Shown: in pieces, positions 7,818-29,708 of the stretch | Layout of the letters: each line of letters starts with the position of its first letter | Numbering within the stretch: the first letter of the stretch is position 1 | Assembly: GCA_965214775.1 (NCBI GenBank) | Contig: OZ243974.1 | Location: 1,696,001-1,760,000 of the forward strand | DNA from: Nitrosopumilus sp. | Lineage (GTDB): Archaea > Thermoproteota > Nitrososphaeria > Nitrososphaerales > Nitrosopumilaceae | Length of the DNA stretch: 64,000 nt | Reading direction: 5' to 3' | Made by a program: the position numbers and the translations under genes | The notes under the pieces: model-generated | Told to the model about the DNA's origin: nothing | Seen by the model: the letters and a program-made list of their open reading frames with translations, nothing else | Databases searched by the model: none

Positions 7818-8522
7818 TCAATCGTTACTATAGTTTATCATAATGCCGTTGTCTCGCAGCCATGTTACGGCCCTTTGATAGTCGTGCATATGCGAGGAGA
7901 CCAGTCTCCAGAAACGATACGAATGGTCTTTGATCTTGAAATGACACAGCTCGTGCAATATTACATATTCGACTACAAACTTCGGAGCCTTGACAAGGTT
8001 GTAATTCAGGTTGATTTCATTACCAGTCGAGCTCCCCCATCTGTCCTTTAACTGCTTGACGTTTATTGTAGGAATGTTAACGCCTACTGTACTAGATAGT
8101 TTTTTCGTCAACCGTGCAAAAAGAACCCTTGCGCGCCTGTTAAGATATGCATTGTACATTTTTTGAATATGAGCGTTCGTGTGTCTTTTCTGAGGTATGT
8201 AAAACTCTAGTGTACTTCCTGCAATGCGTACATGCTCTGTACTGTTTGGTATGATTTTGATTGTATAGTGCTTGTCAAGTACGGGTAGGGTTGATTTTGT
8301 TGAAAATGTGGTATTTTTCTTGCCTGCATAATATAGCTGTTTTTTGTATATCCATGACGCCTTGTCCCTTACCATGCTTTTTACATCATGCATTGATTTG
8401 TTCTTGGGTGTTCGTACGGTAACACCTTGAACGGTAACCGTAATCTGTGAAGTCTTTACCCTGTTGCTTTGTATCAGATCATACAGGATTGATGTGTTTC
8501 CGTGCTTTATTTTTTGCATCAT
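7818..8522 (-). CDS. M48/YgjP (DUF45) metallopeptidase associated with type I R-M
   Basis: RWGS...YVILHELCH...H..FW motif; overlaps the hsdR stop. Confidence 0.92.
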   Translation of the reverse strand: MMQKIKHGNTSILYDLIQSNRVKTSQITVTVQGVTVRTPKNKSMHDVKSMVRDKASWIYKKQLYYAGKKNTTFSTKSTLPVLDKHYTIKIIPNSTEHVRIAGSTLEFYIPQKRHTNAHIQKMYNAYLNRRARVLFARLTKKLSSTVGVNIPTINVKQLKDRWGSSTGNEINLNYNLVKAPKFVVEYVILHELCHFKIKDHSYRFWRLVSSHMHDYQRAVTWLRDNGIMINYSND

Positions 8523-11500
8523 AATGCATCGTGATTAACCAGCGTCAGAATCTTATCAATCAGGGCAAATATGTCCTCATCTGCCATGCTAGATGCCTCA
8601 AGTGTGTCGTATATCGCTCCTTGCATCTTTCTTTGAATGCTTGGCTTGTTGTGGTACTCTACCATTGTAGTGAAGGGTTGTAGTTTAGAGTACAGTGATT
8701 TTGCAAGTTTTCTCGACTGCTCTTTTTGGTGCACTAGTTTGTCAAGGTGATTATAAATGGCAAATTCTAGGTTGTTTTCGAATCCGAGATCCTTTAACAC
8801 CTTTTGGTGTGATAATGCCTCCTCGTAGACTTGCTTGTATTCGTTTTCGGCAAAGTAATCTGCGTTGTCCTTGCGTCTTTGTTTTTCTTCAGATATTATC
8901 CTCAAAAGACGCTGCTGCAGGCTTTCAAAGTATTCGGGGTTAATGTGCATATTTTCATGTATTACCTGTTGTGCCTTGTTTTTAATCAGGGCGGTTCTTG
9001 CCCTAGATGATTCAAACCTTGAAACATATGCCAAAAAGTTCTCAAAGGTAATCTCCTTGGGCTTTACAATCTCAGGTACCCCAGACGATCTGATTGCGTC
9101 ATCTATTAGCTTCTGAATCTTTGAGGCGTATTTAACGGTAGAAGTTATTTCACCGTAGGCGTTTCGTAATACCTGTCTGATTTTTACAAGATCCTTGAAA
9201 TCATCAATGTATGGCTTAGCCTCTTTTTTGTAGATTTGTGTGTTAAAAACCTTGGAGAACTTTTTAAAGTCCTCTATAAAGGCGTCTCTTTTATCTGCTG
9301 GCTCAAATGCTACAACGATTGCACCGTAATCCTTTTTGTCCATACCCTTAAGATGATTCATCACATCATGATGATGCGACTGGAGCGACTCCAACTGATG
9401 AGCATCAGGCTCTAGGGCCCCCCTGATCTGGCAAGGATTAAATGACTGTAGCGCATTTTGGAGGTTTTTTGTTACGCCATAGTAGTCTACAATCAGTCCT
9501 CTGATTTTTGATTCGTCGTAGGGCCTGTTTACCCTTGCAATGGCCTGCAGTAACGCATGATCCTTGAGTGGTTTGTCAAGATACATTACGCTTACAATCG
9601 GTGCGTCAAAGCCCACCAGCAGCATGTCTACTACGATTAATATCTTGGTTGGATCTTTTGGATCTTTGAAGGCATTCTCGGCCAGCCTTTGTTCCTTGTC
9701 TGTAAGGTAGTACTTGTCCCAGCTTGTACCATCCTTGCCTGTCTCACCTTGTTTTTGATCCATTATTATTTTTGACTGCGGTGCGTGCAATCTATCCAGC
9801 TCTTTTTTGTATAGTACAGCTGCCTCCCTTGATGAGGCAACAAGCATTGCCTTGTATCCGGATTCCAAATAGTTTTCCTTAAAGTGGTCGATGATATTGC
9901 TAGCAATTTCTTTTATTCGTGCAGGAGACGTGGCAATTGCGATTTTGTTCGCATACTCTCGCTTTAGCTTATCCTTTAGCTCTGGCGTCATGCCCTGTTC
10001 GGATCCGACGAATCTTTCAAATAGCTCATCAATGTTATTGGCACCTTCGATAAACAGGTCAGGTAGCATTCCTACATAATCTATTGGGAGGGTGGCCCCA
10101 TCTGACTTTGACTCCTCAAAACCATACTGGTCGATTAAATCCCCAAAAACCTGAAACGTTGACTTGTCTTCCCTGTCAATCGGTGTTCCGGTAAAACCAA
10201 AGAATATACCATTGGGCATTGCAGCACTCATGGAGTTTGCATCTATGCCGTACTGTGAACGGTGTGCCTCATCTACAAGAACTATGATCTTTTCATCCGT
10301 CTTGCTTTTTACATCCTCGAACTTTTGTATCGTAGTCACCATGGTCTTGCCCCTTGGTGATGCGATAAATTCGTCAAGATCGGAAGAGATTTGCGCCTTT
10401 ACCGGTAACGGATATCCGGACTGGAGAAAGGTGCTGTAAATTTGCTGGGTTAGCTGTAATCTATCCGTTACTATCAGTATGGGTAGATTACCGTGCTGAA
10501 TTGCCTGTTTTGCCACCCACAGCATTGTAAATGACTTGCCAGATCCCTGGGTATGCCAGACGACACCACCGTGTCTGTCCTGTGCGGTTTGTATTTTTTT
10601 GGCACACTCTTGCACTGCCCTATACTGCTGATGTTTTGCTGTAATTTTTATTTTTTTACTGCCTGTGTCTTGGTATATTGTATAGTTTTTTAGCAAGTCC
10701 AACAGGTTGGACTTGTCAAGCATTCCCGCAATCAGTATCTCCTGCTCCCTACATGCTCCGAATTTCTCCTCTACCTGTTCCCTAGTCAAAGGATGTGCAC
10801 TAGACCACCTACTGTTTTGAAAACTGTTTACATCAGAAGTTATCGTGCCGTGTCTTGCCTTTATTCCGCATGTTGCAATAAGTATGTGGTTATAGTACAT
10901 TAGCCTGTCAAAGCCCTTACCCGATGATCGGTATTTTTTGAAATTCTCTTTTTCTACCGCATCTTCTAGCCATCTTGGTTTGGTAGGGGACTTGCACTCG
11001 ATTATCACTAGAGGAATGCCGTTGACAAAGACTACGATATCAGGATAAATACGCTGCTTGAAACCCCACAGTTCAAACTGGTTTGTAACCAAAAAATCAT
11101 TGTTCTGCATGTTTTCAAAATCAAACAGTCTTATGGTTTTTCGCACTGTGCCGGTTGCATCGTACTGTTCCACTGTTATGGGCTCAAGGCCCCCAGACTG
11201 TGACAGGCCAACAAGCTTTGCCCTGATCTTTTCATTTGCATCTACAGTATCCCGCGCAAACGGAAACTGATCCTCCTTTATCTGACTCAATGCATCAGAT
11301 ATGCCATCCTGATCAATGTGTGGGTTGAGTCGTCGTATTGCCTTTTCTAGCCTATCATACAGTAGCACCTCGTCTAGCTTGGATCTCTCCTTGTTGATAT
11401 CTAGCTTGGATTTGTATTGGTATCCCATTGTAGTCAGCTGCTCTAGTGCTGGCAGCTCAGAGTGCTCTATTTCATCACCTGAGCCTACCACAAAATCCAT
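8519..11500 (-). CDS. hsdR: Type I restriction enzyme R subunit
   Basis: PDIVVFVNGIPLVIIECK nuclease motif; HTQGSGKS, DEAHRSQ, FTGTP, VDMLLVGFD and QAIARVNR helicase motifs. Confidence 0.97.
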   Translation of the reverse strand: MDFVVGSGDEIEHSELPALEQLTTMGYQYKSKLDINKERSKLDEVLLYDRLEKAIRRLNPHIDQDGISDALSQIKEDQFPFARDTVDANEKIRAKLVGLSQSGGLEPITVEQYDATGTVRKTIRLFDFENMQNNDFLVTNQFELWGFKQRIYPDIVVFVNGIPLVIIECKSPTKPRWLEDAVEKENFKKYRSSGKGFDRLMYYNHILIATCGIKARHGTITSDVNSFQNSRWSSAHPLTREQVEEKFGACREQEILIAGMLDKSNLLDLLKNYTIYQDTGSKKIKITAKHQQYRAVQECAKKIQTAQDRHGGVVWHTQGSGKSFTMLWVAKQAIQHGNLPILIVTDRLQLTQQIYSTFLQSGYPLPVKAQISSDLDEFIASPRGKTMVTTIQKFEDVKSKTDEKIIVLVDEAHRSQYGIDANSMSAAMPNGIFFGFTGTPIDREDKSTFQVFGDLIDQYGFEESKSDGATLPIDYVGMLPDLFIEGANNIDELFERFVGSEQGMTPELKDKLKREYANKIAIATSPARIKEIASNIIDHFKENYLESGYKAMLVASSREAAVLYKKELDRLHAPQSKIIMDQKQGETGKDGTSWDKYYLTDKEQRLAENAFKDPKDPTKILIVVDMLLVGFDAPIVSVMYLDKPLKDHALLQAIARVNRPYDESKIRGLIVDYYGVTKNLQNALQSFNPCQIRGALEPDAHQLESLQSHHHDVMNHLKGMDKKDYGAIVVAFEPADKRDAFIEDFKKFSKVFNTQIYKKEAKPYIDDFKDLVKIRQVLRNAYGEITSTVKYASKIQKLIDDAIRSSGVPEIVKPKEITFENFLAYVSRFESSRARTALIKNKAQQVIHENMHINPEYFESLQQRLLRIISEEKQRRKDNADYFAENEYKQVYEEALSHQKVLKDLGFENNLEFAIYNHLDKLVHQKEQSRKLAKSLYSKLQPFTTMVEYHNKPSIQRKMQGAIYDTLEASSMADEDIFALIDKILTLVNHDAL

Positions 11501-11549
11501 GGGTTTACTTGTCGTACATCCTTGTAAGTTTTAGGATGGTATTAAGATC

Positions 11550-12602
11550 TGTCTTATACAGAAATTAGGTCCGCCTAAGATAAGGCGTACGATCGCTGAC
11601 TATTTCAGGCTGTACCGATCAAGCAAAGACATGACAAGAAAGATGTCGGACAAGAAGATCAGGTATGTCATCAGGGGCCGCAATGCCGGAAAGAGCGCCA
11701 CGTCGCTGGCCCGTGACATGAAGGTGACGCCACGGCACGTGAGGAGGATTTACGCTAGGTACCGCCAGACAGGAAAGATGCACGTGCAGCAAAAGGCGGG
11801 AAGAAAGGCCGCACCGCAGCCCGCGGCAGGCCAGGTGCAGGCAGTCTTGGACATGCACTCTGTAGAGCACGTAGGCGTGATGCGCACTGCCATGCGCCTG
11901 CAGGATGCAGGTCACGTTATAAGCTACAACAGCGTATATCGGATAATGAAGGAGCAGGGACTCGTTACTCCATCAGATGCCAAGTCGGGCCAAAAAAAGT
12001 GGCTGCGTTATGAGCGCAAGTACTCCAACGCAATGTGGCACGTGGACTGGCACGATATGAAGGATCCACGCCTGAGAGGGCTCAATCTAGTCACGTTTTT
12101 GGACGATTCATCCCGGTGTGTCACGCCGGCACGGACGTTTGCCGAGGCCACATCAGAAAACGTGGTGATAACACTCAGGGATGCCATAGACAGATTTGGC
12201 ACGCCGGCTACCATACTGTCTGACAACGGCAGGTGTTTCAACGGCGGCCGCAGCAAGAAGAACATGCCACGCGGAACATGGACGCCGACTACCTTTGAGG
12301 CCGAGCTGCTGAACCGGGGTATCGGACTGATAAACTCAAGACCGTATCATCCAGAGACCAACGGCAAGCTGGAATGATTCCACGGCAGCATAGAGGCCGA
12401 AATCCGTCACTATGAGAGCCTGGCAGCATACATCAAGTACTATAACGAACGCAGGCTGCACTTTGGGCTGGACATAGCCCACCGCCAGACGCCCATCATG
12501 GCGTTCTCGGACAAAACGGCCACAGAAGCGATCAGGAAATCCGACCCAAAATGGATGGAGAGGGACATCAATGAATAGCGGACATTATTTCCATATAACA
12601 CA
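11550..12602 (+). mobile_element. IS481-family element with inactivated transposase
   Basis: TGT...ACA ends with ~25-bp imperfect TIR; duplicated flank TGGTATTAAGAT. Confidence 0.9.
11631..12578 (+). pseudogene. IS481 transposase with premature TGA at 12375-12377
   Basis: WHVDW, LDDSSR, SDNG, HPETNGKLE*; the frame continues FHGSIEAEI to 12578. Confidence 0.9.
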
Positions 12603-12654
12603 CTGGTATTAAGATTCAATAACAGGAGTTTGATATACTGATTAGATACACATA

Positions 12655-13212
12655 ATGACATATTTTGTAAAACCCAAGATTTGTAATGTAGTGTGTACTG
12701 CCAGTCTTGAGCAAAGGATCAATATGGCTAGGCTTGCTGGACTTGCGTGCGGAATTTATGATGAGGCGATATACGGCGGAAGATGCGGATATGTTAAGAT
12801 GCCTGAGATGGACGGACGTGTGACCATATTTCCAAGTGGAAAGATGATCTCAGTTGGAGGCAGAACCATAAGCAAGGCCATCGAGCAGCTCAACCACGCA
12901 AAATTCTATCTGGTACAGGAAAAAATGATACACGATGTAAAGATTGTTCCCGTGATCCGAAACATCGTAGCCACGGTTGAGCTTGATCATAAAATACCCG
13001 TTGACGTATTGGCCTCAAAGATATCTGGAGCCATATATGATCCCGAAACGTTTCCAGGCATGATTTTAAAAGGGATCGACAGCTGTCGTTTTCTTGTATT
13101 TGCCTCTGGAAAGATTGTGATTGCAGGTGCCAAATCCTCAGACGAGCTAAACAGTGCATCCTTTGAGGTTCTTCAGAGGCTAGATGATACGGCCGCAAGG
13201 ATACTAACATGA
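12655..13212 (+). CDS. tbp: Divergent TATA-box-binding protein paralogue
   Basis: Two TBP repeats: NVVCTASL...IFPSGKMISVG and NIVATVEL...YDPETFPGMI...LVFASGKIVIAGAKS. Confidence 0.92.
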   Translation: MTYFVKPKICNVVCTASLEQRINMARLAGLACGIYDEAIYGGRCGYVKMPEMDGRVTIFPSGKMISVGGRTISKAIEQLNHAKFYLVQEKMIHDVKIVPVIRNIVATVELDHKIPVDVLASKISGAIYDPETFPGMILKGIDSCRFLVFASGKIVIAGAKSSDELNSASFEVLQRLDDTAARILT

Positions 13213-14423
13213 CTCCAAAACCAAAAAAAGGCTACAAATTGGCAAAGTCGCTTTTTGGGAGATATGAGGAGATTCCAGAAGAATGGGAAATTGTTTCTAT
13301 GGAACAAATCTGTAAAAAATTTACTAGTGGAGGTACTCCCTCAACAAATGTTTTAGAATATTGGGATGGAGACATTCCATGGACAAGAAGCTCCATTTTA
13401 ACGAATCATTATTTGGAATATGGCGAACGATGTATTACAAAAAAAGGACTAGATGAAAGCTCTTCTGTTCTAATCCCGCAAGACAATTTACTTGTATCAT
13501 CCAGAGTATCGCTTGGAAACTTGTCGATAAATCGTATTGCTGTTGCAATTAGTCAGGACATAACGGCAATTATTGTAGATAAATCACACATCTCTTCTGA
13601 GTTTCTTTACTGGTTCTTAAAACAGAATATTATGCTCTTGACATCATACTCTCAAGGAACAACTATTCAGGGTTTCACACGAAAAGAATTATCAAAATTT
13701 CGAGTCGTTCTTCCTCCACTCCCAGAACAGGCAAAGATTGCGTCAATCCTTTCAGGAGTTGACGCACTGATTGAAAAGACGCAGGAGGCAATCGAGAAGA
13801 CCGAGCAGGTAAAGAGAGGATTGACGCAAAGATTACTGACTAATGGAATAGCAGGTACAAAACTCAAGAAAACATTTTTGGGCAAAATTGCTAAATTCTC
13901 AAGTGGTGAGTTTTTACCTACAAAAAACTATAATTTTGGCAAAATTCCCGTGTATGGAGGAAATGGTGTTGTTGGTTATCATGATAAGGAATTAATCAAA
14001 CACGATACGATAATTTTTGGTAGAGTTGGTGCATATTGTGGTTCAGTACATATTTCAAGAGATAAGTCATGGATTACTGATAACGCTATATTTATCAAGA
14101 ATCTTTCAAATCAAGTCCAGCTAGAATATCTTTATAGATTTTTATCACGATTAAACATAGGCATTTTAGCTGAAGTATCTGCACAACCAAAGATTACACA
14201 AGATATTCTCAACCATGTTAAAGTCCAATTTCCTGAAGATTTAGATGAACAAAAACAAATTGCATCAATCCTGTCGGGAGTTGACGCACCAGACCGTGCA
14301 TGCCTCATAATCGCCACAATCTTACGCATGAGACTGGGAATACTCTTAATACTGTTTGCAGCGGTGTTAAACCATGAGTTCCACAATACAGAAAAGGACC
14401 TACACAATCGTCATAACTTCTGA
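13209..14423 (+). CDS. hsdS: Type I R-M specificity subunit, second (inverted) copy lacking the conserved C-terminal helix
   Basis: IPEEW, SGGTPST, PPLPEQAKIASIL and a second TRD; homology stops after IASILSGVDA at 14288. Confidence 0.9.
   Translation: MTPKPKKGYKLAKSLFGRYEEIPEEWEIVSMEQICKKFTSGGTPSTNVLEYWDGDIPWTRSSILTNHYLEYGERCITKKGLDESSSVLIPQDNLLVSSRVSLGNLSINRIAVAISQDITAIIVDKSHISSEFLYWFLKQNIMLLTSYSQGTTIQGFTRKELSKFRVVLPPLPEQAKIASILSGVDALIEKTQEAIEKTEQVKRGLTQRLLTNGIAGTKLKKTFLGKIAKFSSGEFLPTKNYNFGKIPVYGGNGVVGYHDKELIKHDTIIFGRVGAYCGSVHISRDKSWITDNAIFIKNLSNQVQLEYLYRFLSRLNIGILAEVSAQPKITQDILNHVKVQFPEDLDEQKQIASILSGVDAPDRACLIIATILRMRLGILLILFAAVLNHEFHNTEKDLHNRHNF
13724..13805. repeat. hsdS inverted repeat 1, left (partner 19188-19269)
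   Basis: 43 bp perfect match (13724-13766 vs 19227-19269), ~82 bp with 6 mismatches. Confidence 0.92.
14258..14288. repeat. hsdS inverted repeat 2, left (partner 18591-18621)
   Basis: AATTGCATCAATCCTGTCGGGAGTTGAYGCA, 30/31 identical. Confidence 0.9.
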
Positions 14424-14595
14424 TGAAATAGATGGGGGTTTTGTCGGGGTCTGCGATGAGCTGAACGCCTTTTCGCAAGGTGAGACGTACGGAGAGGTAA
14501 TGGAGAATATGAAGGAGGCAGTAGAGCTTGCGGCAGAAGAAAGCGGCAACACTGATGATTTTAACATGCTGATCGTTCAGAAGCGTAATGACTAA
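14374..14595 (+). CDS. hicB: HicB-family antitoxin
   Basis: YTIVI...GGFV...FSQGETYGEVMENMKEAVEL. Confidence 0.9.
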   Translation: MSSTIQKRTYTIVITSDEIDGGFVGVCDELNAFSQGETYGEVMENMKEAVELAAEESGNTDDFNMLIVQKRND

Positions 14596-14902
14596 GATTC
14601 CGAGAATTTCCGGCAATGCAATGATAAGATACCTGATCAGGAAAGAATTCACAACAACAAGCAGAAAAGGCAGTCACGTTACATTAAGACGTGATCATGT
14701 CCCGGTAACGGTTCCTGCTGGAAACGGCAAGCTAAAGGTTGGGTTGCTTTTAGGCGTGCTAGACAAGGCGGGAATTGACAGGAAGGAGTTTGTAGACGAT
14801 CACATCGTACGAGGTCACCTACCCCTGCCAATCAGGCACGAGTTGGCATCTATGACTATGATTTTCACGCCTATACTGACGATCATTGAAAATTTCGCCT
14901 GA
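14588..14902 (+). CDS. hicA: HicA-family toxin, C-terminus altered by insertion
   Basis: RKGSHV...VTVP...LKVGLL..VLDKAGI; the native end SGIAK* lies at 16003-16020 beyond the insertion. Confidence 0.85.
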   Translation: MTKIPRISGNAMIRYLIRKEFTTTSRKGSHVTLRRDHVPVTVPAGNGKLKVGLLLGVLDKAGIDRKEFVDDHIVRGHLPLPIRHELASMTMIFTPILTIIENFA

Positions 14903-15994
14903 TTACACGCGGCGCTCAAGATATTTGTAGATGTCAACCTTGATGGAACACGTCCTAAAGTATTCCGAGACATCCCTTTTGAGGTGATCTGCCGAATCGT
15001 AAAAGGCAGATGTGACCAGTATGTACTTGGCATCCTTCCAGATTGGCTCTATGGCGCTCAGCTCCGGCCTGGCTACCGGCAGGTACAGCAGGATAACGTC
15101 GGGATTTTTCTCCAGGTACATGCGGACCCTTCCGGTCCTATGCTGTGCTGCGTTGTCCATCACAATCAGAACCTTTCCCCACTTTTTGCGCGCCTGCTTG
15201 AGATAACGCACAAAGTTTATGCTGTTGAACTTGTCGTATGTACGCATCAGCCTGGTTCCGTCGTCTGCAACCGTTCCGTATACCACGACGCGCTCCCTTC
15301 TGCCGGATCGTTGCACCTCGATTCTGTCCCCCACTGGCGACCAGAACTTTTTGCCGTCCCTTCCCGTACTGACGAATATCGACTCGTCCTGTACGGTTAT
15401 CCTGAATCCGCGCCTTTTTGCAAGCCTAATCGTGTCTTTTGCCTCCCTTTGCCATCGTCTTACCTCCTTTGCGTCGGCAGCATCTGCCAGCTTGGTAGTT
15501 GACGTCTTTAGCGAGAATCCCATCGTGCGCAGGATTCTTCTGATGCTTCCAACGCTGTATGTTACATGCAGTTTGCGGCGCACCCAGTTGCGCATCTTCT
15601 TTGGGGTGAGCTTTTCCATCCTGCGCAGCCTCATGGCGATCTTTTTTATCCTGTTGATTGGAACCTTTGGCTTTTTGCCCCTGTTGGGGGAGTCACGGAG
15701 ACCGTCAACGCCGTCAAGCTCAAACCTCTCAACCCACATCTGTACGGTACGCTGTGTCACGTCGGCAATCTCTGCGGTCTGTGCAGTGGTGTTGCCAAGC
15801 AGTACGGAGCGCACCGCCAGGATTCTGGTATAAACCCTGTTATCCTTTTCTACATGCATGGCGTCCGTGAGGATTTTCGTCTTGTTCATGTCAGAAGGGC
15901 CATGGCGGAGATCTATAAACCTTCACAAGACGTGTAATCAGGCGAAATTTTCAATGATCGTCAGTATAGCCAGCAGGGGGACGTGACCACATAC
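14807..15994. mobile_element. MITE family C split by IS630
   Basis: 67 + 26 = 93 bp halves; 8-bp TSD ATCACATC. Confidence 0.88.
14874..15966 (-). mobile_element. IS630-family element (transposase 14903-15889)
   Basis: ~32-bp TIR TACTGACGATCATTGAAAA(T)TTTCGCCTGATTA, TA target; QDES, MDNA and PELSAIE DDE motifs. Confidence 0.93.
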
Positions 15995-16124: not shown

Positions 16125-17039
16125 ATGTCAAACCAAAGAAGCATGACGCTGTTTGAGGAATCAATCAGATCAAAATATACAAAAAGGAACTACCATTCTC
16201 ACCTCAACCACTTCATGAAATTTATGAAAGCAGGCTCTACTGATGATGTGTTGATGCTATCACCCTCCGAGCTACAACGCGGAGTAGAGGATTACCTGAT
16301 GGCGTTAAAATCCACATCCAATCCAAACTCAGTCCCGTCTATGTTTCGAGGAATAAGGCATTTTTGCATCATGAATGAGATCGGCCTCAACTGGAACAAA
16401 ATATACAAGATGTTTCCCCCAAAACAGAAAACCCAAAGCATGAGATCCTACACCGCAAGTGAAATCCGCCGGATGCTGTCTGTTGAAAAAAATGCGAGAA
16501 ACAAGGCACTGATTCACTTTCTTGCATCAACGGGTGCAAGAATAGGGGTTTTTGATCATCCCATGCTGATCAAACACATGCAAACGATGCCCTGCCGCTG
16601 CAGCGCGGTGCTGCTTTATGCCGGGGATGTGGAGGAATACTGGTCATTTCTTACGCCACAGGCAACGAAAATACTAAAGGCGTACCACGATTACCGCAGG
16701 CAAAAAGGTGAGGTTTTCGGTGATGACGCCCCGATGTTTGGAACTGACAAGGCAGTCCAAGGGCAGTTGGGATGGAGTGGTGCCAGATCCGTAATCTACA
16801 GGGCAATCTCAAAGAGCGGCATAGCCAGACTCAAGCAGGGAGGACGCTATGATGTTCAGGCAGATCACGGTTTTAGAAAGCGGTTCAATACCATACTAAA
16901 GCTGGACAATTCGATAAACTACAACATTGCAGAAAAACTGATGGGTCACAAAAATGGCCTTGATGGAACATATCTTACGCCAACACTGGAGGAGATGTTC
17001 TCAGAATTTAGGAAAGTCATGCGCAAGATACAGGTTTGA
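16125..17039 (+). CDS. Tyrosine recombinase (candidate hsdS invertase)
   Basis: STGARIG, HGFRKRF, LMGH and Y catalytic motifs; lies between the inverted hsdS genes. Confidence 0.9.
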   Translation: MSNQRSMTLFEESIRSKYTKRNYHSHLNHFMKFMKAGSTDDVLMLSPSELQRGVEDYLMALKSTSNPNSVPSMFRGIRHFCIMNEIGLNWNKIYKMFPPKQKTQSMRSYTASEIRRMLSVEKNARNKALIHFLASTGARIGVFDHPMLIKHMQTMPCRCSAVLLYAGDVEEYWSFLTPQATKILKAYHDYRRQKGEVFGDDAPMFGTDKAVQGQLGWSGARSVIYRAISKSGIARLKQGGRYDVQADHGFRKRFNTILKLDNSINYNIAEKLMGHKNGLDGTYLTPTLEEMFSEFRKVMRKIQV

Positions 17040-18491: not shown

Positions 18492-19766
18492 TCAGATCTT
18501 TACTCGGATCTTGCCTGTAAGAAGATTCTGCATTAAGCCTTTTTTCAATATCTCAAGTTTTTCTTTGTACTCCTGATTCTTCTGAATATATGCATCAACT
18601 CCCGACAGGATTGATGCAATTCTTTGTTGTTCTGGAAGGGATGCCGGTACAGTAACAACCACCTTTGAGATCCCCTTTTTACTGATCTCTAAAAACGTCG
18701 TGCCATATGATAGTCGCAACAAGTTATTTTGATTGTGCCTGAGCAAATAAAAAATCAACAACTTGTCAAAGCCATCATTGCAAATTATGCTTTGAAATCC
18801 TTGATTGGTTGATATTGGCTTTGCTGCTATTGCACATTCGCCAATCGTAGCTCGTGAAGTAATCAGAATTGCCCCCTTGGGTAACAATTTGGCCGAACTA
18901 TTGTCCAATCCATGTTTGGTGATTTTCCGCTCGGTGTTTTTTATCTCGTTGGTTTGTAACTTAGTGATGTCTGTTGGAATCGCCCACAATATGTCTCCGT
19001 TCCAGTATTCTGGATTTTTGGAATCCGGAGTGCCACCGCCGATTATATCTCCTACATCGCTTAGTCTTTTGGCATCCCACTCTTCTGGAATCTTGATATC
19101 TTTGCTGAACATCCAATGGACCTTCTTGAACTTCGTATGGCCGATTCCCCTAGTCAGCAGCCTCTGCATAAGGCCCTTCTTGAGCCTCTCCGTCTTCTCG
19201 ATTGCCTCCTGCGTCGACTCGATCAATGCGTCAACTCCTGAAAGGATTGACGCAATCTTTGCCTGTTCTTTTATATTATCAGTAAATGGCAGTTTTGTTT
19301 TTTCTATATCCTCCCTGTTTATCGCATCATATGTAGTTCCCTGAGCGTAAACAGAAAAATTTTTCTTGTTTTTACTGATCAAATAAAAACAGTAAAGCAA
19401 GTTGTTTTTTCTCGTGTTAAACGATGCTATGCCCCTTCCTATACAACATCTCGTTTTTGTGAGATTTGTTTCCCCTACTGGAGCTCTTACAGAAAACAAA
19501 ATGGAGTTGCTTTCTGCGATTTTTTTGGAATCTGTACACCATACCGTAGGATTTGGATATGCTGCTCCAAAATCAGTTACTCCCTGATAAAACGGCAAAC
19601 CTTTCTCTTCTTCATTGTAACTTTCGGATGGTGGAGACTGGCCCATTGTTACTTTTAGTATTTCTGAAGTTCGTGTAATTGTCCACTCTTCTGGAATTTT
19701 AATCTCCCTGTCAAACATCCAGTGGATCTTCTTGTAGCCTTTCTTGGGATTAGGCGGCCGATTCAA
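18492..19766 (-). CDS. hsdS: Type I R-M specificity subunit, complete, coupled to hsdM
   Basis: Two TRDs (MGQSP..., GGGTPDS...), two IASILSGVDA helices and terminal KKGLMQNLLTGKIRV. Confidence 0.95.
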   Translation of the reverse strand: MNRPPNPKKGYKKIHWMFDREIKIPEEWTITRTSEILKVTMGQSPPSESYNEEEKGLPFYQGVTDFGAAYPNPTVWCTDSKKIAESNSILFSVRAPVGETNLTKTRCCIGRGIASFNTRKNNLLYCFYLISKNKKNFSVYAQGTTYDAINREDIEKTKLPFTDNIKEQAKIASILSGVDALIESTQEAIEKTERLKKGLMQRLLTRGIGHTKFKKVHWMFSKDIKIPEEWDAKRLSDVGDIIGGGTPDSKNPEYWNGDILWAIPTDITKLQTNEIKNTERKITKHGLDNSSAKLLPKGAILITSRATIGECAIAAKPISTNQGFQSIICNDGFDKLLIFYLLRHNQNNLLRLSYGTTFLEISKKGISKVVVTVPASLPEQQRIASILSGVDAYIQKNQEYKEKLEILKKGLMQNLLTGKIRVKI

Positions 19767-21372
19767 AGCTTTATCCCAAGTCCCGTCAAATCTGCTCGTG
19801 TCTGCTTTTCCAGTTTTCCTATCTCTGCACTTGTGGTTTTTAACTCATTATATGCAGTTTGTATGTCGATTTCCTCTTCGGGCTCGGAAATGTCTACGTA
19901 TCGGGGCACATTAAGATTAAACTTGTTTTCTTGCAGTTCTTTCAAATCTGCTACATGGCAATACTTGTCAATATCCTTAAAACTCTCAAATGCGGACACT
20001 ATCTTTGAAATATCTGTTACTCTTAGCTTGTTTCTGTTTTTGCCCTCTTCAAAGTCCTTTGCGGCATAGATGAACAGAACTTTGTCTTTACGCTTTGCAG
20101 GCTTTGACTTGTTTAGAATCATTATACAGGCAGGAATGCTTGTACCCCAGAACAGCTTGGGTGGCAGTGCAATTATGGCCTCAATTACATCACCTTGCAG
20201 GTTATTCTCAGCACATCCGACAATCATTTTTTCTCGGATTTTACCCTCCTTGCTTCCTCTGAACAGAACCCCTTGGGAACACACTATGGCTGCCTGACCT
20301 TTTGGGTTCAACGACGTCAACATGTGCAAGATAAAAGCATAATCTGCCTTGTTCTTTGCAGGAGATATGCCGTACTCAAACCTGTCGTACGGATCTTCTG
20401 ATGCCGTAGAGTTGTCCCAGTCCATGGAAAAGGGAAAATTAGCTAATAGACTTTATGCGTAATCGATCTGAATGAGATGAATTTGTTCGTAATAATCCTA
20501 GTTTTGGATCGATTACGCATAAAGTCTAATACCCTGTCGTATTTTTTAAGTGAGCCGCCTTCTATCAGTTTTGGTTCCGATAACACATTTCCATACTGTA
20601 TGTTAAAGTTCTCCATCTGGTGTAAAACCATGTTCATCTTACACATTCCTAGGTTGCCATAGTTTGATTCCTGTCCATCCAGTACAAGATCATCAACGTT
20701 GCCGCCATGATCCTGCACGTATTTTCTAGAAAGAATCAGCATTCCGCCGGAACCGCAGGTAGGATCAGAGATCTTCATCTTTTGTGTTGGTTTTGTGATA
20801 TGTACCAACAAGCTTACGACTTCCCTTGGGGTAAAGAACTCACCACCCTTCTTTTTTGTCTCATCTGCAAACGTCTCAAGCAGATACTCGTACGCATCGC
20901 CAAAAATGTCCTCTTTTTCTAGATTTTCATTGGATAATGCCAATCCGTTAAAGTGTGCAATAAGAGCACGAAGCTTGTCATCAGGATATTTCTTTTTGTC
21001 GTTGTACTTTGTATTGGTTAGCACTCCCTCCAGTTTTCGTATATTTTTTTCCAAATCCCTGCATACATCATCCATTTTTTCGCCCAGATTGGAAGATGCA
21101 GAAGACAAGATATCCCAACGTGCAGACTCTGGAACAAAAAACTTATGTCGGAATTCTTGTAGTGCCTTTTTCTCATTCAGGCCACTTTCTATCAAATTCG
21201 CCACATTTTCCTCAAAGGTGTCATTTAGGCGCTTTAGAAACAACACTGTCATGACTGGCTGCCTGTATTCTTGCGCATCAAGGGATCCACGCAGAATGTC
21301 GGCTGCATCCCATAAGTGCCGCTTCAGTGACTCGAGTGTTAGTTTATTTTGGCCCACAAAGCCATTTGGCAA
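19763..21372 (-). pseudogene. hsdM: Type I methyltransferase interrupted by a MITE
   Basis: LWDAADILRG, GEFFTP, DPTCGSGG. Removing 83 bp at ~20449-20531 restores YDRVLANFPFSMDW in frame. Confidence 0.93.
20449..20526. mobile_element. MITE family A inserted in hsdM
   Basis: 20-bp perfect TIR GACTTTATGCGTAATCGATC; duplicated TAATA (or AAT) target. Confidence 0.92.
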
Positions 21373-24146: not shown

Positions 24147-24172
24147 GGGACTCGTCTGGATCCTGAGATTGA

Positions 24173-24271
24173 TTTGCCGACTTTGCCGACTTTGCCGACT
24201 TTGCCGACTTTGCCGACTTTGCCGACTTTGCCGACTTTGCCGACTTTGCCGACTTTGCCGACTTTGCCGAC
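24173..24271. repeat. Perfect tandem repeat (TTTGCCGAC)x11
   Basis: Read directly from the sequence. Confidence 0.97.
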
Positions 24272-24312
24272 TTTTGGCGCCTGAAGTCCCTGTTTTATCT
24301 GAAGATTTGACA

Positions 24313-25464
24313 TGTATAGTCCAAAAAGTAGTTCACCCCTTCTCCGAGTGTGTAAAGTCGGTCAGGAGCAGATGTGCAAGCCTGACCCACACTGGAAGTA
24401 CAGGTGTGTGGGTCTGGCGACGAAAGCTCCGTAAATACGTGAGTCTTGAGCACCCAAACGGCATGAAGCTAGAGAAAAACCAGGTACAATGGATAGTGCA
24501 GGAAAAGAAAAAGGGCGAGCTTACCTGCGCCCAGATAGCCGGAACCATGGACGTGACGGTACGGTGGGTCCAGAAGCTGTGGGCCAGGCACAAAGGCTGC
24601 CCTGCAGCAAGCGAGATATCGCATCCTGCGCCAATGGGAAGGCCCCAGAACGGTCTGCCCGGACGCAGGGAGCACTCTGCAGTCATGTCTGCCAGACATG
24701 CAGAGCACATGGGGGCTGCCGGACTGCAGCAGCGCATAGCGAATCAGACCGGAATCCATATCCCGCACGGCATCATACACAAGATACTGAGGGACGAGGA
24801 GATGGCAGAGGCGCAGCCCAGCAAGGGTACAAGGTACAGGTGGGTCCGATACGAGCGCGATCACTCAAACTCACTGTGGCATACAGACTGGAAGCAGATC
24901 CACGGCGGAATGCACGACGGCAGATGGTTCCTGTGCTACGAGGACGATGCCTCCAGGTTTGTGACCGGATATGGCATCTTTGATAATGCCACGACCAAAA
25001 ACGCCCTGGCAGTGCTTGAGACGGCAATAGAAAAGCACGGCAAGCCGGCCTCGATCATGACAGACCACGGCAGCCAGTTCTATGCCAACGAGAAAGAGAC
25101 GGCAAAAAAGAGGGGCGAAGGCGAGTTTGAAAAGAAACTGACAGAACTGGGAATACGGCAGATCCTGGCAGGCGTGGGACGACCCCAGACCAACGGAAAG
25201 GTCGAGCGCCTCCACGGGGAGATCCAGCGCAAGCTGCACGAGTTCGAGGAGATCATGATGAGAAAAAGCGACCCGATAGACCTGTTCATGCAGTGGTACA
25301 ATCATGACAGGCCCCACAGGTCGCTGGACTGGGACAATCAGGAGACGCCCGCGCAGGCATTTCTCAGAAAGATGCCCAAGGAGGGGGAAACCGTTATTGA
25401 CGGGCAGACAGGAGAGGAGTATGATGTCAAATAAGGGGGGGCGAACTACTTTCTGGATCCCACA
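24313..25464 (+). mobile_element. IS481-family element (transposase ~24463-25434)
   Basis: TGT...ACA ends, 16-bp TSD ATCTGAAGATTTGACA; WHTDW, DDASR, TDHG and QTNGKVER motifs. Confidence 0.93.
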
Positions 25465-25777
25465 ATCTGAAGATTTGACAAGACAACTGGCTATTCACAT
25501 GATTTTTAGTCATGGATCACTTCTCTGGCCGGCAGGCACGTAACCTCACACGTCAGTCTGAAGTATATGACTCGTGGCGATGGAGACAGCAACATGCAAA
25601 TCTGCAGTGCCCACACCAAAAAATGGATCATGGTTTTGACATATCGTACCTATTCTAACAGAAAAATATTCGACTTTCAACTGTACGTACTATGCAGACA
25701 GCTTGGATTTAGCTGTTTCATGGTTTGGAGCCGTTTTTTGGGCTACTTTTGGGAAGACTGCCCGTTCTGGATCCCGC

Positions 25778-26842
25778 TCTATTGTACGAAAATTAGGTCG
25801 CACTAATTTGAGGAGGATTGCAGGGGATTACTTTAGGCTTTACCGATCAAGAAAACCGATGGTTGTAAGGCTCGAGGCAAAGCAGATCAGATACGCAGTG
25901 ACGCAATGTGCAGGGGGACGAAAGCCCTCGGAGGTGGCCCCGGAGATAGGCGTCACGACAAGGCACGTCCAGCGGATGTATGCCCGGTTCAGGAAGACAG
26001 GCGACACGCACCACGTGCCGCTCAAGCCGGGAAGGAAAAAGAGCGCCCCGGTTCCCGACGGGGACGTGCGCGCAGTCCTGGAGGAGTACAAACACAGTGC
26101 AGCAGGGGTGGTTCATACGGCCAAGAGGCTGCGAAGGCAACTCGATATAAGCTACTACGAGGTATACAGGATAATGAAAGAAAACGGGCTGGTGACGCCA
26201 TCGGCTGCAAAATCAATGCCCAGAAAATACGTCCGCTTTGAGCGCAAATACTCCAATGCCATGTGGCACGTGGACTGGCATACCATGAAGGATCCGCGCT
26301 TTGCAGGGCTCAATTTGGTCACGTTCCTAGACGACTCGTCCAGGTGCGTGACTGGTGCGGGCCTGTTCAGGGAGGCCACCTCAGAAAACGTCGTGGCGGT
26401 CCTGCGGCAGGCCGTGGCCCAGTTCGGCGCGCCTGCCACCATACTCTCAGACAACGGCAAGTGCTTTGTCGGGGCGCGCTCGGATCCGAAGAAGAAGAAG
26501 AGTCCGCCCAAGGGCGGATGGAGGCCCACTGCCTTTGAGGAGGAGCTGCTCAACTGCGAAATCGGGCTGATAAACTCCAGGCCGTATCACCCGCAGACCA
26601 ATGGCAAACTGGAGAGATTCCACAGGAGCATCGAGGAGGAGATATGGAACCACAAGAGTCTGTCTGCATACATCGACTACTATAACGAGGACAGGCTGCA
26701 CTGGTCGCTTGACATCGACAACTACGAGACGCCGCTGCGGGCATTCTCCGACAGGGAGGCCACAGAAGCGATCAGGAAAAGCAACCCAAGATGGATGGAG
26801 GAGGACATTGGTGATGGTGCGACATAATTTTCATATAATACA
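25778..26842 (+). mobile_element. IS481-family element (transposase ~25859-26827)
   Basis: Imperfect TIR, 15-bp TSD CGTTCTGGATCCCGC; intact DDE motifs. Confidence 0.93.
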
Positions 26843-28643: not shown

Positions 28644-29708
28644 ATGAATGGTGAAAAATCCAGATTTATGATAGCAAATATCGCCTGGAATAGTAAGGAT
28701 TGGCGCGAGATTGAACCGCCCAATCGAAATGCGGGTTCACGGTATGCTCAAGAAAACTCGCCACACGAATCGTTGAACTTTGACTTTAACAAAAAAGGAG
28801 TAGATACCGAAGAACATGTGTTTGGTTACGTGGAATGGCGTGGAACCCCGCGACGATTCGAGGAGCCTGGAATCATCTTCTTTCATACAAAAAACCTTGA
28901 GAACGGCAAAAACGAAATAGTCGGCGTCTACTGCGGCGCCAGAGTCCTAAGCGAGAAGGAAACAAAAACAGCGTTTTGGAAGGGATTTCAAGACAACAAA
29001 TTGGTTGCAAACATACAAGCCGAAAAAGCAAAATCCGTACTGTTTAAAATCCGTTTGGACGCAAGCAAGTATGAAGACAAGTACTATAAAGGCGAAAGGA
29101 TGGTATCGCGATACTTTCAGTATGTATGGAAGCAGGAGATCGCCGAGGAGATGATAACGGATGAAATTCGAGGAACTGTTAAATCAGATGCAGGGTTTGA
29201 GGAGCTTGACAAACTATCCGTCATTTTTGAGGAGATAACCGGCAAAAAGTGCGTCTGCATTCCAGTGGAAAAAGACAATGATCAAAAAGAGCAGGAAGAA
29301 CTAGAAGAAGATTCCGGCAAGCCGATAAGCAAAGTGGCTGAGGAATTAAAAAAACTAGACTTGGAAGAAAAACCTCCGGAAGTGATTAGGCGTAATGGCA
29401 AAGAATACAAAAGATACAATCTAATCATCGCCCGTTTGAAACAATACCGAAATTACCAATGTCAGATATGTCATATTAAAATCAAGAAAGGAAATGGCGG
29501 TTATTACATAGAGGGGGCGCACATCACCCCAAAGAGAGATAGAGGGGGTGAAAAAACCTCCAACATCATGATCCTATGTCCGAACCACCACAAGGAATTT
29601 GATTACGGAAATATTGAGAATATGAGACGTTCCAAAGAACAGGTACGGTTCAAAATGAACGGAAAAGAATATGAGATTGATCTTGAAGTAAAGTCCGTGG
29701 TCAGCTGA
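28644..29708 (+). CDS. HNH endonuclease (type IV restriction-like)
   Basis: C-terminal CQIC...EGAHITP...NIMILCPNHHKEFD. Confidence 0.88.
   Translation: MNGEKSRFMIANIAWNSKDWREIEPPNRNAGSRYAQENSPHESLNFDFNKKGVDTEEHVFGYVEWRGTPRRFEEPGIIFFHTKNLENGKNEIVGVYCGARVLSEKETKTAFWKGFQDNKLVANIQAEKAKSVLFKIRLDASKYEDKYYKGERMVSRYFQYVWKQEIAEEMITDEIRGTVKSDAGFEELDKLSVIFEEITGKKCVCIPVEKDNDQKEQEELEEDSGKPISKVAEELKKLDLEEKPPEVIRRNGKEYKRYNLIIARLKQYRNYQCQICHIKIKKGNGGYYIEGAHITPKRDRGGEKTSNIMILCPNHHKEFDYGNIENMRRSKEQVRFKMNGKEYEIDLEVKSVVS

Follow-up and report, generated by a model that had tools for sequence, protein, structure and literature searches.

In haloarchaea and Methanosarcina, multiple paralogues of the TATA-binding protein (TBP) and of its partner TFB serve as alternative initiation factors that have been proposed to select promoter subsets. 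Extra TBPs are usually read as alternative housekeeping factors. To our knowledge, the paralogues in these archaea have symmetric canonical stirrups and are not tied to restriction-modification (R-M) genes. In bacteria, R-M genes can be controlled by C (controller) proteins, which are small helix-turn-helix repressor/activators working on sigma-70 RNA polymerase. They are often encoded just upstream of the restriction gene and overlap with it, C-then-R being the order of bacterial controller operons. We know of essentially nothing that has been described on the control of R-M genes in archaea. Here, TBPx is presented, a divergent TBP paralogue encoded in a type I R-M locus on a 64,000-nucleotide stretch of a Nitrosopumilus sp. 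contig (OZ243974.1, assembly GCA_965214775.1, positions 1,696,001 to 1,760,000 of the forward strand), called the window throughout. The clade to which TBPx belongs lies beside R-M genes of four types in two archaeal classes, which makes it a testable candidate for module-encoded transcription control in archaea.

Other described systems resemble this locus in part. The anticodon nuclease PrrC contains an ABC-ATPase domain. PrrC and RloC occur in R-M operons, according to passages of one source (PMC3710099). Like PrrC, TBPx is an extra gene wedged between hsd genes, but it is without an enzymatic domain and is found with type IIG and type III systems as well. The bacterial TOTE/TALON conflict systems, which are largely from Chloroflexota, contain TBP-domain proteins, with a TPR-cold-shock fusion, a YprA helicase and a NERD nuclease as partners (passages of PMC12458937). 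As far as these passages describe them, they share with TBPx the presence of a TBP-fold protein within a defence or conflict gene cluster. TBPx, however, is a full archaeal-type two-repeat TBP, and Pfam scans of 20 neighbouring open reading frames (ORFs) of the window gave none of the TPR, OB, cold-shock, NERD and YprA families. A study of sponge-associated Thaumarchaeota reports a group of TBP orthologues found in a single Nitrosopumilus symbiont only, and suggests environmental sensing for it; the passages concerned make no mention of R-M linkage (PMC6697440). A full-text literature search, outside of which most subscription papers and supplements fall, found no description of a TBP-R-M association in archaea.

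The gene that gave rise to this analysis is the following:

12655..13212, plus strand: TBPx, divergent two-repeat TATA-binding-protein paralogue of 185 amino acids (ORF, Pfam, genome scan, alignment, AlphaFold2 (AF2) model, Foldseek)

A preliminary description of this DNA had called it a full two-repeat TBP whose stop overlaps the start of an hsdS gene and which is divergent from hsdR, and the reading frame, Pfam and the sequence itself agree with this. The 185-codon frame is open and intact, and its stop TGA (13210-13212) shares the tetranucleotide ATGA with the start ATG of hsdS1 (13209-13211); a contig from a public run (X2, 12574-13753) spans this junction with zero differences. TBPx matches the Pfam TBP family PF00352 in two stretches (E 1.4e-28, 99 bits vs a cut-off of 22.9), and in the whole-genome scan both repeats score above the cut-off, with 67.4 bits for repeat 2 and 34.4 bits for repeat 1. 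The AF2 model is a saddle-shaped alpha/beta fold with a predicted local distance difference test score (pLDDT) of 92.9. With this model, Foldseek finds TBPs only among the top 44 listed matches, the best being Sulfolobus acidocaldarius TBP (1mp9) with a template modelling score (TM) of 0.87-0.88. Generic TBP clusters are all that TBPx meets in the ESM Atlas, and in PADLOC it matches no defence model. The public gene call for this gene (P0002) has 162 amino acids at 88% query cover and is thus 23 amino acids shorter than the ORF. Assuming that the shortfall is N-terminal, P0002 would omit the conserved first strand, and the 185-residue coordinates are to be preferred.

The housekeeping TBP of the host is a protein other than TBPx. 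The source genome (2.83 Mb in one contig, 99.9% complete) has two canonical TBPs elsewhere, at 1.56 Mb and 2.23 Mb (G000:C1), which score approximately 95-104 bits per repeat vs 67 and 34 for TBPx, and for this reason TBPx is not the main TBP either. Its best NCBIfam TBP model, NF001593, gives 87.6 bits vs a cut-off of 181, and TBPx falls far short of all NCBIfam TBP cut-offs; a canonical TBP of the same genome reaches 249.8 bits on its best model, NF001592, with a cut-off of 270.

Compared to canonical archaeal TBP (PF00352; PDB 1mp9, 1ais), TBPx has the same two repeats, the same saddle fold (TM 0.87) and the same pair of asparagines in strand 1. It further shares the canonical C-terminal stirrup and three of the four DNA-kinking phenylalanines, two per repeat, the positions of which we take to be those of yeast and human TBP. 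The preliminary description had pointed to an altered phenylalanine position and an altered stirrup, citing YDEAIYGG in repeat 1 and YDPETFPG in repeat 2, and these sequences are found at residues 35-42 and 128-135. The repeat-1 signature is YDEAIYGGRCGYVK, while YDPETFPG forms the repeat-2 stirrup. The first kinking position is occupied by Tyr40, so that three rather than four phenylalanines are present (F59, F133 and F149). Unlike canonical TBP, in which this region reads F-P-G-L-x-Y-R, TBPx has a rebuilt N-terminal stirrup with a two-residue insertion and an invariant Y-G-G-R-C-G-Y. The lowest-confidence block of the AF2 model (residues 31-40, pLDDT 72) coincides with this altered stirrup.

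The alteration is a property of the clade. A sequence search gave 197 relatives at E <=1e-5 among 348 candidates; the closest are 88%, 75% and 73% identical, and a relative in Cenarchaeum symbiosum A is 56% identical. In 30 aligned members with 43-86% identity, D36, Y40, G42, C44, Y46 and K48 are invariant and the signature is Y-D-x-x-I-Y-G-G-R-C-G-Y-(V/I)-K. There are two wider subgroups, B with L-Y-R-C-G-Y and C with Y-G-G-R-V-A-Y and similar sequences. When 83 TBPx rows are compared to 60 canonical rows, both strand-1 asparagines, F59, F133 and F149 are kept in TBPx, and the C-terminal stirrup Y-x-P-E-x-F-P is conserved to at least 90%, as in canonical TBPs. The N-terminal stirrup, in contrast, is Y-G-G-R-x-x-Y with two extra residues vs the canonical F-P-G-L-x-Y-R.

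In a FastTree phylogeny of 147 TBP rows, built from TBP ORFs of 165-235 amino acids only, 83 TBPx rows are separated from 64 canonical rows by a branch of 0.78 (SH-like support 99). The canonical side includes the source genome's own TBPs, the in-genus housekeeping TBPs and two canonical TBPs of Bathyarchaeia/Bathyarchaeota (L047, L081). The same split was obtained with a quick IQ-TREE run under a C20 mixture (72 rows, SH-aLRT 100), from which six long-branch rows and then every second remaining row were omitted. The groups were defined from FastTree, so the IQ-TREE run is a robustness test and not an independent hypothesis. By their sequences, the TBPx proteins thus form a clade distinct from the housekeeping TBPs, and TBPx, a paralogue as the preliminary description had held, lies across this branch from the genome's own TBPs. 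Nei-Gojobori ratios of nonsynonymous to synonymous substitution (dN/dS) lie at 0.07-0.27 in all 11 pairs giving a value (between the window and L111, dS is saturated and gives no ratio). A ratio near 1, which had been named as a sign of decay, is not seen, and the values indicate that the clade is under purifying selection.

The clade is present in Nitrososphaeria (Nitrosopumilus, Nitrosotenuis, Cenarchaeum) and in relatives of these. Named genome matches come from Nitrosopumilus, Nitrosopumilaceae, Nitrosotenuis and metagenome-assembled genomes (MAGs) of Nitrososphaerales. One named relative of a group C member is a protein from a Bathyarchaeota MAG (61% identity). Within the genus, the spread is sporadic, with matches at E <=1e-30 in two of 24 other genomes, one copy being broken by stops. 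TBPx resembles the haloarchaeal and Methanosarcina paralogues in being an extra copy beside the main TBP, but differs from them as a deep separate clade with a fixed class of genomic partners, and from canonical TBP in being accessory, sporadic and R-M-linked rather than housekeeping.

This class of partners is the R-M gene cluster. The TBPx loci were gathered with TBPx peptide patterns only, so the sampling is not biased towards R-M neighbours. Across all loci, 1732 ORFs were called, including 158 TBPs, and neighbours were labelled with jackhmmer profiles seeded with the window's Hsd proteins and then with Pfam-verified type III, Dam and IIG seeds. In a first pass, hsdS, hsdM or hsdR was found within 5 kb of TBPs in group A (16/24), group B (4/5), group C (9/41) and among unclassed ones (12/46), but beside none of 42 canonical TBPs. 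For the later counts, other R-M types were added and TBPs that are at least 90% identical were collapsed into clusters. An R-M gene then lies within 5 kb in 39 of 83 TBPx clusters vs none of the 39 canonical ones. Restricting the count to clusters flanked by at least 3 kb on one side gives 32/46 vs 0/38, and requiring this much flank on both sides gives 18/23 vs 0/26. Per subgroup, 13 of 21 clusters are linked in A, 4 of 5 in B and 22 of 57 in C+ (7/10, 2/3 and 9/10, respectively, where both flanks are available); for TBP ORFs that were not in the tree, the class was assigned from motif or score, leaving eight fragment clusters unclassed, two of them with R-M neighbours. The median gap between TBPx and the nearest R-M gene is 151 nt in 45 loci.

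A matched control was drawn from the window's genome and four complete TBPx-carrying Nitrosopumilus chromosomes, with approximately 8 kb on each side of every TBP gene. No S, M, R, Mod or Res gene lies within this distance in any of the 14 canonical TBP loci, whereas an hsd gene is found within 5 kb of eight of the nine TBPx copies of these five genomes. The nine copies counted are those of the window, L029, L031, L032, L033 (two), L210, L211 and L212; the copies in L210 and L211 lie beside hsd genes and the one in L212 beside a recombinase only. Five two-flank TBPx loci have no R-M gene: L038, L040, L030, the B copy of L037, and L170. The copies in L038 (155 amino acids) and L040 (138 amino acids) are truncated, the one in L030 adjoins a DUF5655 gene (PADLOC candidate PDC-S18) and the B copy of L037 has a recombinase 2 kb away. 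Altogether, the TBPx clade is physically coupled to R-M gene clusters in many genomes; the possibility that homologues never co-occur with R-M genes, raised at the outset, does not hold.

The partners differ in type. Pfam confirms type I partners for the window, for L109, where S precedes M, and for L152, where an R gene with EcoEI_R_C is followed by S, M and TBPx; type IIG fusions (Eco57I/MmeI/TaqI_C) in L123, L133, L147, L178, L180 and L186; and type III partners in L183 (N6_N4 methylase and Res) and L185 (Res with an endonuclease domain). In L156, a D12 Dam-type methylase directly follows TBPx. The gene order varies as well. The nearest R-M gene is co-directional with TBPx in 28 of 45 loci (15 downstream of TBPx, 13 upstream), convergent in nine and divergent in eight. 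L034 and L114 have the order M-S-TBPx-R-YgjP and the short contig L113 has S-TBPx-R, TBPx overlapping R in all three; L039 has TBPx-M-S-R. L033 shows the layout of the window, with YgjP and R on one strand and TBPx and S on the other, without the insertion sequence (IS) found there, and carries a second TBPx copy, of group B, beside a recombinase. In the window, L033, L110 and L112, TBPx and R are divergent; the source genome's second type I locus, near 346 kb, has no TBPx.

A functional tie is argued chiefly from an adjacency that has survived many rearrangements and extends over different enzyme classes. Since the partners span types I, IIG, III and Dam-type, a structural subunit of any one R-M enzyme type is disfavoured, and a transcription factor dedicated to the module is preferred to a type I subunit. 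Co-folding of the L034 proteins HsdM (residues 105-603), HsdS and TBPx, which was run without controls, gave a score of 0.00 vs a mark of 0.34, which speaks neither for nor against a complex. The R-M linkage of the clade suggests that these modules carry their own transcription factor.

Other features of the window are listed below.

7818..8522, minus strand: YgjP-like metallopeptidase gene, downstream of hsdR (Pfam)
8519..11500, minus strand: hsdR, type I restriction subunit of 993 amino acids, divergent from TBPx (HSDR_N, SWI2_SNF2, T1R_D3)
11550..12604, plus strand: rve-type IS with frameshifted transposase, between hsdR and TBPx (Pfam, repeat analysis)
13209..14423, plus strand: hsdS1, type I specificity subunit with two target-recognition domains (Pfam Methylase_S, two stretches)
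14374..14902, plus strand: HicB-like (14374-14595) and HicA (14588-14902) toxin-antitoxin pair
14871..15969, minus strand: IS630-family element with perfect 39-nt terminal inverted repeats (DDE_3 transposase 14903-15889)
16125..17039, plus strand: tyrosine recombinase (Pfam), 61-68% identical to recombinases beside TBPx or hsdS in L026, L031, L032, L033 and L037
17179..18177, minus strand: DUF5655 protein, candidate defence protein PDC-S18 (PADLOC)
18492..19766, minus strand: hsdS2, second specificity gene, inverted relative to hsdS1 (Pfam)
19763..21372, minus strand: hsdM, split into 19763-20425 and 20443-21372 (Pfam, repeat analysis, alignment)
24169-25434 and 25703-26827: rve-type IS copies
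28644-29708: HNH endonuclease gene
29900-32740, minus strand: type III Res
32737-35223, minus strand: type III Mod

The window is a variable, IS-ridden defence region, and public-run contigs break at its IS copies. The rve-type IS between hsdR and TBPx is bounded by the 12-nt direct repeat TGGTATTAAGAT at 11538-11549 and 12605-12616. It is multicopy, as seen from a depth spike, and public contigs break at its ends. The 1154-nt gap between hsdR and TBPx is therefore not native, since the IS was inserted between the genes; without it, approximately 87 nt are left. The pair of R and YgjP on the far side of this gap is also present in L032, L033 and L034. The IS630-family element adjoins the 3′ end of hicA, and forms without it exist, with contig joints from near 14871 to 15967 in X1, X2, X6 and X7.

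The frames of hsdR, both hsdS genes and TBPx are whole, while hsdM is split by a small palindromic insertion at approximately 20444-20531, just before the NFPF motif, with 25-nt arms that are 96% complementary. This element is multicopy and resembles a miniature inverted-repeat transposable element, as its depth spike in public contigs illustrates. Because of the split, the window's type I R-M copy is probably impaired. The hsdM of the Nitrososphaeraceae contig L039 (563-2109) also lies in two frames, possibly due to a MAG frameshift. Its break is located elsewhere, and a split site common to both genes was ruled out by alignment, the NFPF region being intact in L039. The two specificity genes have two inverted repeats in common, one of 147 nt (80%) and one of 42 nt (90%), within 13724-14288 and 18591-19295. 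One X2 contig links 14252 to 19264 on opposite strands, at a depth of 14 vs roughly 100, which is a single weak hint of recombination between hsdS1 and hsdS2, i.e., specificity switching by inversion.

The preliminary description had also proposed an undescribed module of TBP, hsdS, HicBA and recombinase. Of this proposal, the R-M-embedded TBP stands. The association is not specific for hsdS, as type I, IIG, III and Dam-type partners occur, and HicBA and the recombinase are local rather than general parts of the TBPx module. HicB homologues are found in two other loci only (L033, L037), and the HicB-like Pfam match in the window is itself weak (18.7 bits vs a cut-off of 27). The recombinase is present in a minority: the query matched only six ORFs among all gathered loci, recombinases lie within 5 kb of TBPx in L026, L031, L032, L033, L037, L210, L211 and L212, and none was seen in the listed group C loci. 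DUF5655 (PDC-S18) is found directly beside TBPx in L030 (8603-9511), L118 and L119, and 4 kb away from it in the window.

Two other neighbours are related to transcription or may be so. The first is a small C4 zinc-ribbon protein of 55-76 amino acids, present in 18 of 92 TBPx loci vs 0 of 54 canonical loci. In 15 of these 18 loci its gene lies within 400 nt of TBPx, mostly directly downstream. The invariants are C-P-x-C, W, C-x-C, F, Y and K, and examples are:

L110:1548-1712: zinc-ribbon protein gene
L110:712-942: zinc-ribbon protein gene
L123:7688-7876: zinc-ribbon protein gene
L164:4520-4711: zinc-ribbon protein gene

No Pfam family scores above threshold for this protein (generic zinc ribbons are sub-threshold; Lar_restr_allev gives 19.1 bits vs a cut-off of 28.6), and searches of the window's genome and of the four Nitrosopumilus chromosomes (G041-G044) did not find it. 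As a partner of TBPx it is a lead only. The second neighbour is a TFB-like gene, found in the group C loci L153 (5308-6435) and L180 (5479-6705). L153 has the order TBPx, a 68-residue ORF, the TFB-like gene and a putative methylase-like gene of 545 amino acids that matches a type IIG seed. In L200, L206 and L209, canonical TBPs have housekeeping TFB genes as neighbours, and the source genome has four full TFB genes and a partial one, none of which is in the window.

How TBPx could act can be proposed from these elements. In TBP of yeast, human and Pyrococcus, the C-terminal stirrup is the docking surface for TFB/TFIIB, while the N-terminal stirrup and the first kinking position are taken to contact the downstream half of the TATA element. 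We know of no archaeal partner of the N-terminal stirrup. TBPx is expected to bind and bend promoter DNA, because three of the four kinking phenylalanines are kept, the fourth is an invariant tyrosine and both strand-1 asparagines are retained. TFB would dock on the canonical C-terminal stirrup. As the DNA-contacting saddle looks intact and this stirrup is unchanged, TBPx probably can seed a TBP-TFB-DNA complex, judging from its sequence. The remodelled and frozen N-terminal stirrup would then confer a changed promoter preference or accommodate a new partner; its fixed remodelling in any case pinpoints a specific surface of interest.

TBPx may accordingly be pictured as a promoter-recognition factor that belongs to the module and governs how strongly or when the linked R-M genes are expressed, and so would do the job of bacterial C proteins with an archaeal general transcription factor. 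In the window, it would head a TBPx-hsdS1 unit that faced hsdR across a spacer of approximately 87 nt before the IS insertion. By analogy, we tentatively favour this C-protein-like role as a module-encoded promoter factor, for which we see a chance just short of even. Like C proteins, TBPx is a small protein of the DNA-binding type inside R-M clusters. Moreover, the overlapping codons in M-S-TBPx-R (L034, L114) and the overlap of TBPx with R in L113 match the C-then-R order. Unlike C proteins, it has no helix-turn-helix and has the fold of a general transcription factor; the likeness is one of position only. If true, this would be an archaeal counterpart of the bacterial C proteins built from TBP, and a new role for a universal archaeal and eukaryotic initiation factor. 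The link between TBPx and R-M genes also accounts for orphan extra TBPs in some symbiont and sediment archaea. A wider proposal is that R-M modules of Nitrososphaeria, and probably of Bathyarchaeia, carry their own TBP paralogue, sometimes with a zinc-ribbon or TFB-like gene, either as a self-contained promoter-recognition unit for R-M genes or as a TBP-based defence arm that shuts off transcription; it is a possible one, with somewhat less than an even chance.

Several observations weigh against a C-protein-like role. Inspection by eye of the 160 nt preceding 36 TBPx genes, no motif program being used, showed AT-rich stretches approximately 25-35 nt upstream of many of the starts but no special motif common to them. 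In nine of the 45 loci the nearest R-M gene is convergent, an arrangement that would be unusual for a simple activator upstream of its target, and operon-internal positions with overlapping codons would equally suit a stoichiometric subunit. R-M function does not need TBPx, since most R-M loci are without it, among them, in this genome, the second type I locus (near 346 kb) and the type III locus of the window. In the window, the locus is damaged by the split of hsdM and by two IS, while TBPx is intact. Lastly, the TBPx-R-M association could have a single origin; the counts are not those of independent events, because every linked row falls on the same side of a single branch.

Other explanations would place TBPx within defence without making it a regulator of its neighbours. 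It could be a guard or abortive-infection effector that is restrained or sensed by the R-M machinery, so that a virus which disables restriction would release a dominant-negative TBP onto TATA boxes or TFB and transcription would be shut down. PrrC, which is embedded in the EcoprrI type I locus, follows the same guard logic. That TBPx lies among hsd genes in L034, L113 and L114, with codons that overlap, would fit such an effector, as would the recurrence of other defence passengers near TBPx (DUF5655/PDC-S18, the HicB homologue) and the retention of the TFB-docking stirrup while the other stirrup is altered. However, TBPx has no effector or toxin-like domain, being a plain TBP fold as a whole, and a shared physical interface for sensing is improbable with partner enzymes as unrelated as types I, IIG, III and Dam. 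We therefore consider a guard function unlikely. That TBPx is a decoy absorbing viral proteins aimed at the host TBP or TFB is suggested by the defence context and by its being a divergent copy of a host factor, but a decoy would be expected to resemble the host TBP on its surface, with which a fixed and remodelled stirrup is at odds. We know of no virus-encoded partner, and a scan of IMG/VR with the TBPx alignment, directed at a viral origin, gave no relative; a decoy is very improbable indeed.

Two further possibilities detach TBPx from R-M transcription altogether. An alternative general transcription factor for an unrelated regulon, e.g., for stress or symbiosis, could simply co-travel with R-M genes in mobile or variable regions. 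Its sporadic presence in the genus (2/24 other genomes), the IS elements and other defence genes around it in the window and the copies beside non-R-M genes, i.e., Cas6 (L040), a superfamily 1 (SF1) helicase (L038) and phosphoenolpyruvate carboxykinase (L030), are what such a passenger would show, although two of these copies (L038, L040) are truncated. An environment-sensing role has also been proposed for the TBP orthologous group of the sponge symbiont, in passages of PMC6697440. A passenger would, however, hardly keep a median gap of 151 nt to the nearest R-M gene, with 28 of 45 co-directional, nor a link that spans four R-M types and two archaeal classes, while canonical TBPs show none in 39 clusters and in 14 loci of the same genomes. 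Such co-travel is thus rather unlikely. Alternatively, TBPx could be an architectural, DNA-bending cofactor of an R-M enzyme or of a recombinase that inverts hsdS, without a role in transcription, in the way that IHF and Fis assist bacterial recombinases by bending DNA. The conserved recombinase (61-68% identical) within 5 kb of TBPx in eight loci, the inverted arrangement and shared repeats of hsdS1 and hsdS2, and the X2 contig joining 14252 to 19264 on opposite strands are in line with this. But the recombinase accounts for only six ORFs and was not seen in the listed group C loci, yet nine of ten two-flank C+ clusters are R-M-linked, and the conserved TFB-docking stirrup would be left unexplained. 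A purely architectural role is accordingly held to be quite unlikely. The C-protein-like role remains the reading that we prefer.

Some minor observations were made besides these. The type III Mod and Res genes and the HNH region of the window have no TBPx alongside. In L036 (1-74), a long, by eye apparently perfect palindrome of approximately 60 nt forms the contig start just upstream of TBPx and may be an assembly artefact. At divergent TBP-like frames in L006/L217, L213 and L214, no R-M neighbours were seen. L213 and L214 are from two other Nitrosopumilus chromosomes, whose TBP frames are comparably weak to the one in L006/L217. The latter is a third, very divergent TBP-like frame of the source genome (G000:C1:1945351-1945599), with 35 bits in Pfam over one repeat and 22-36 bits against the TBPx profile, and it adjoins a putative transposase-like ORF.

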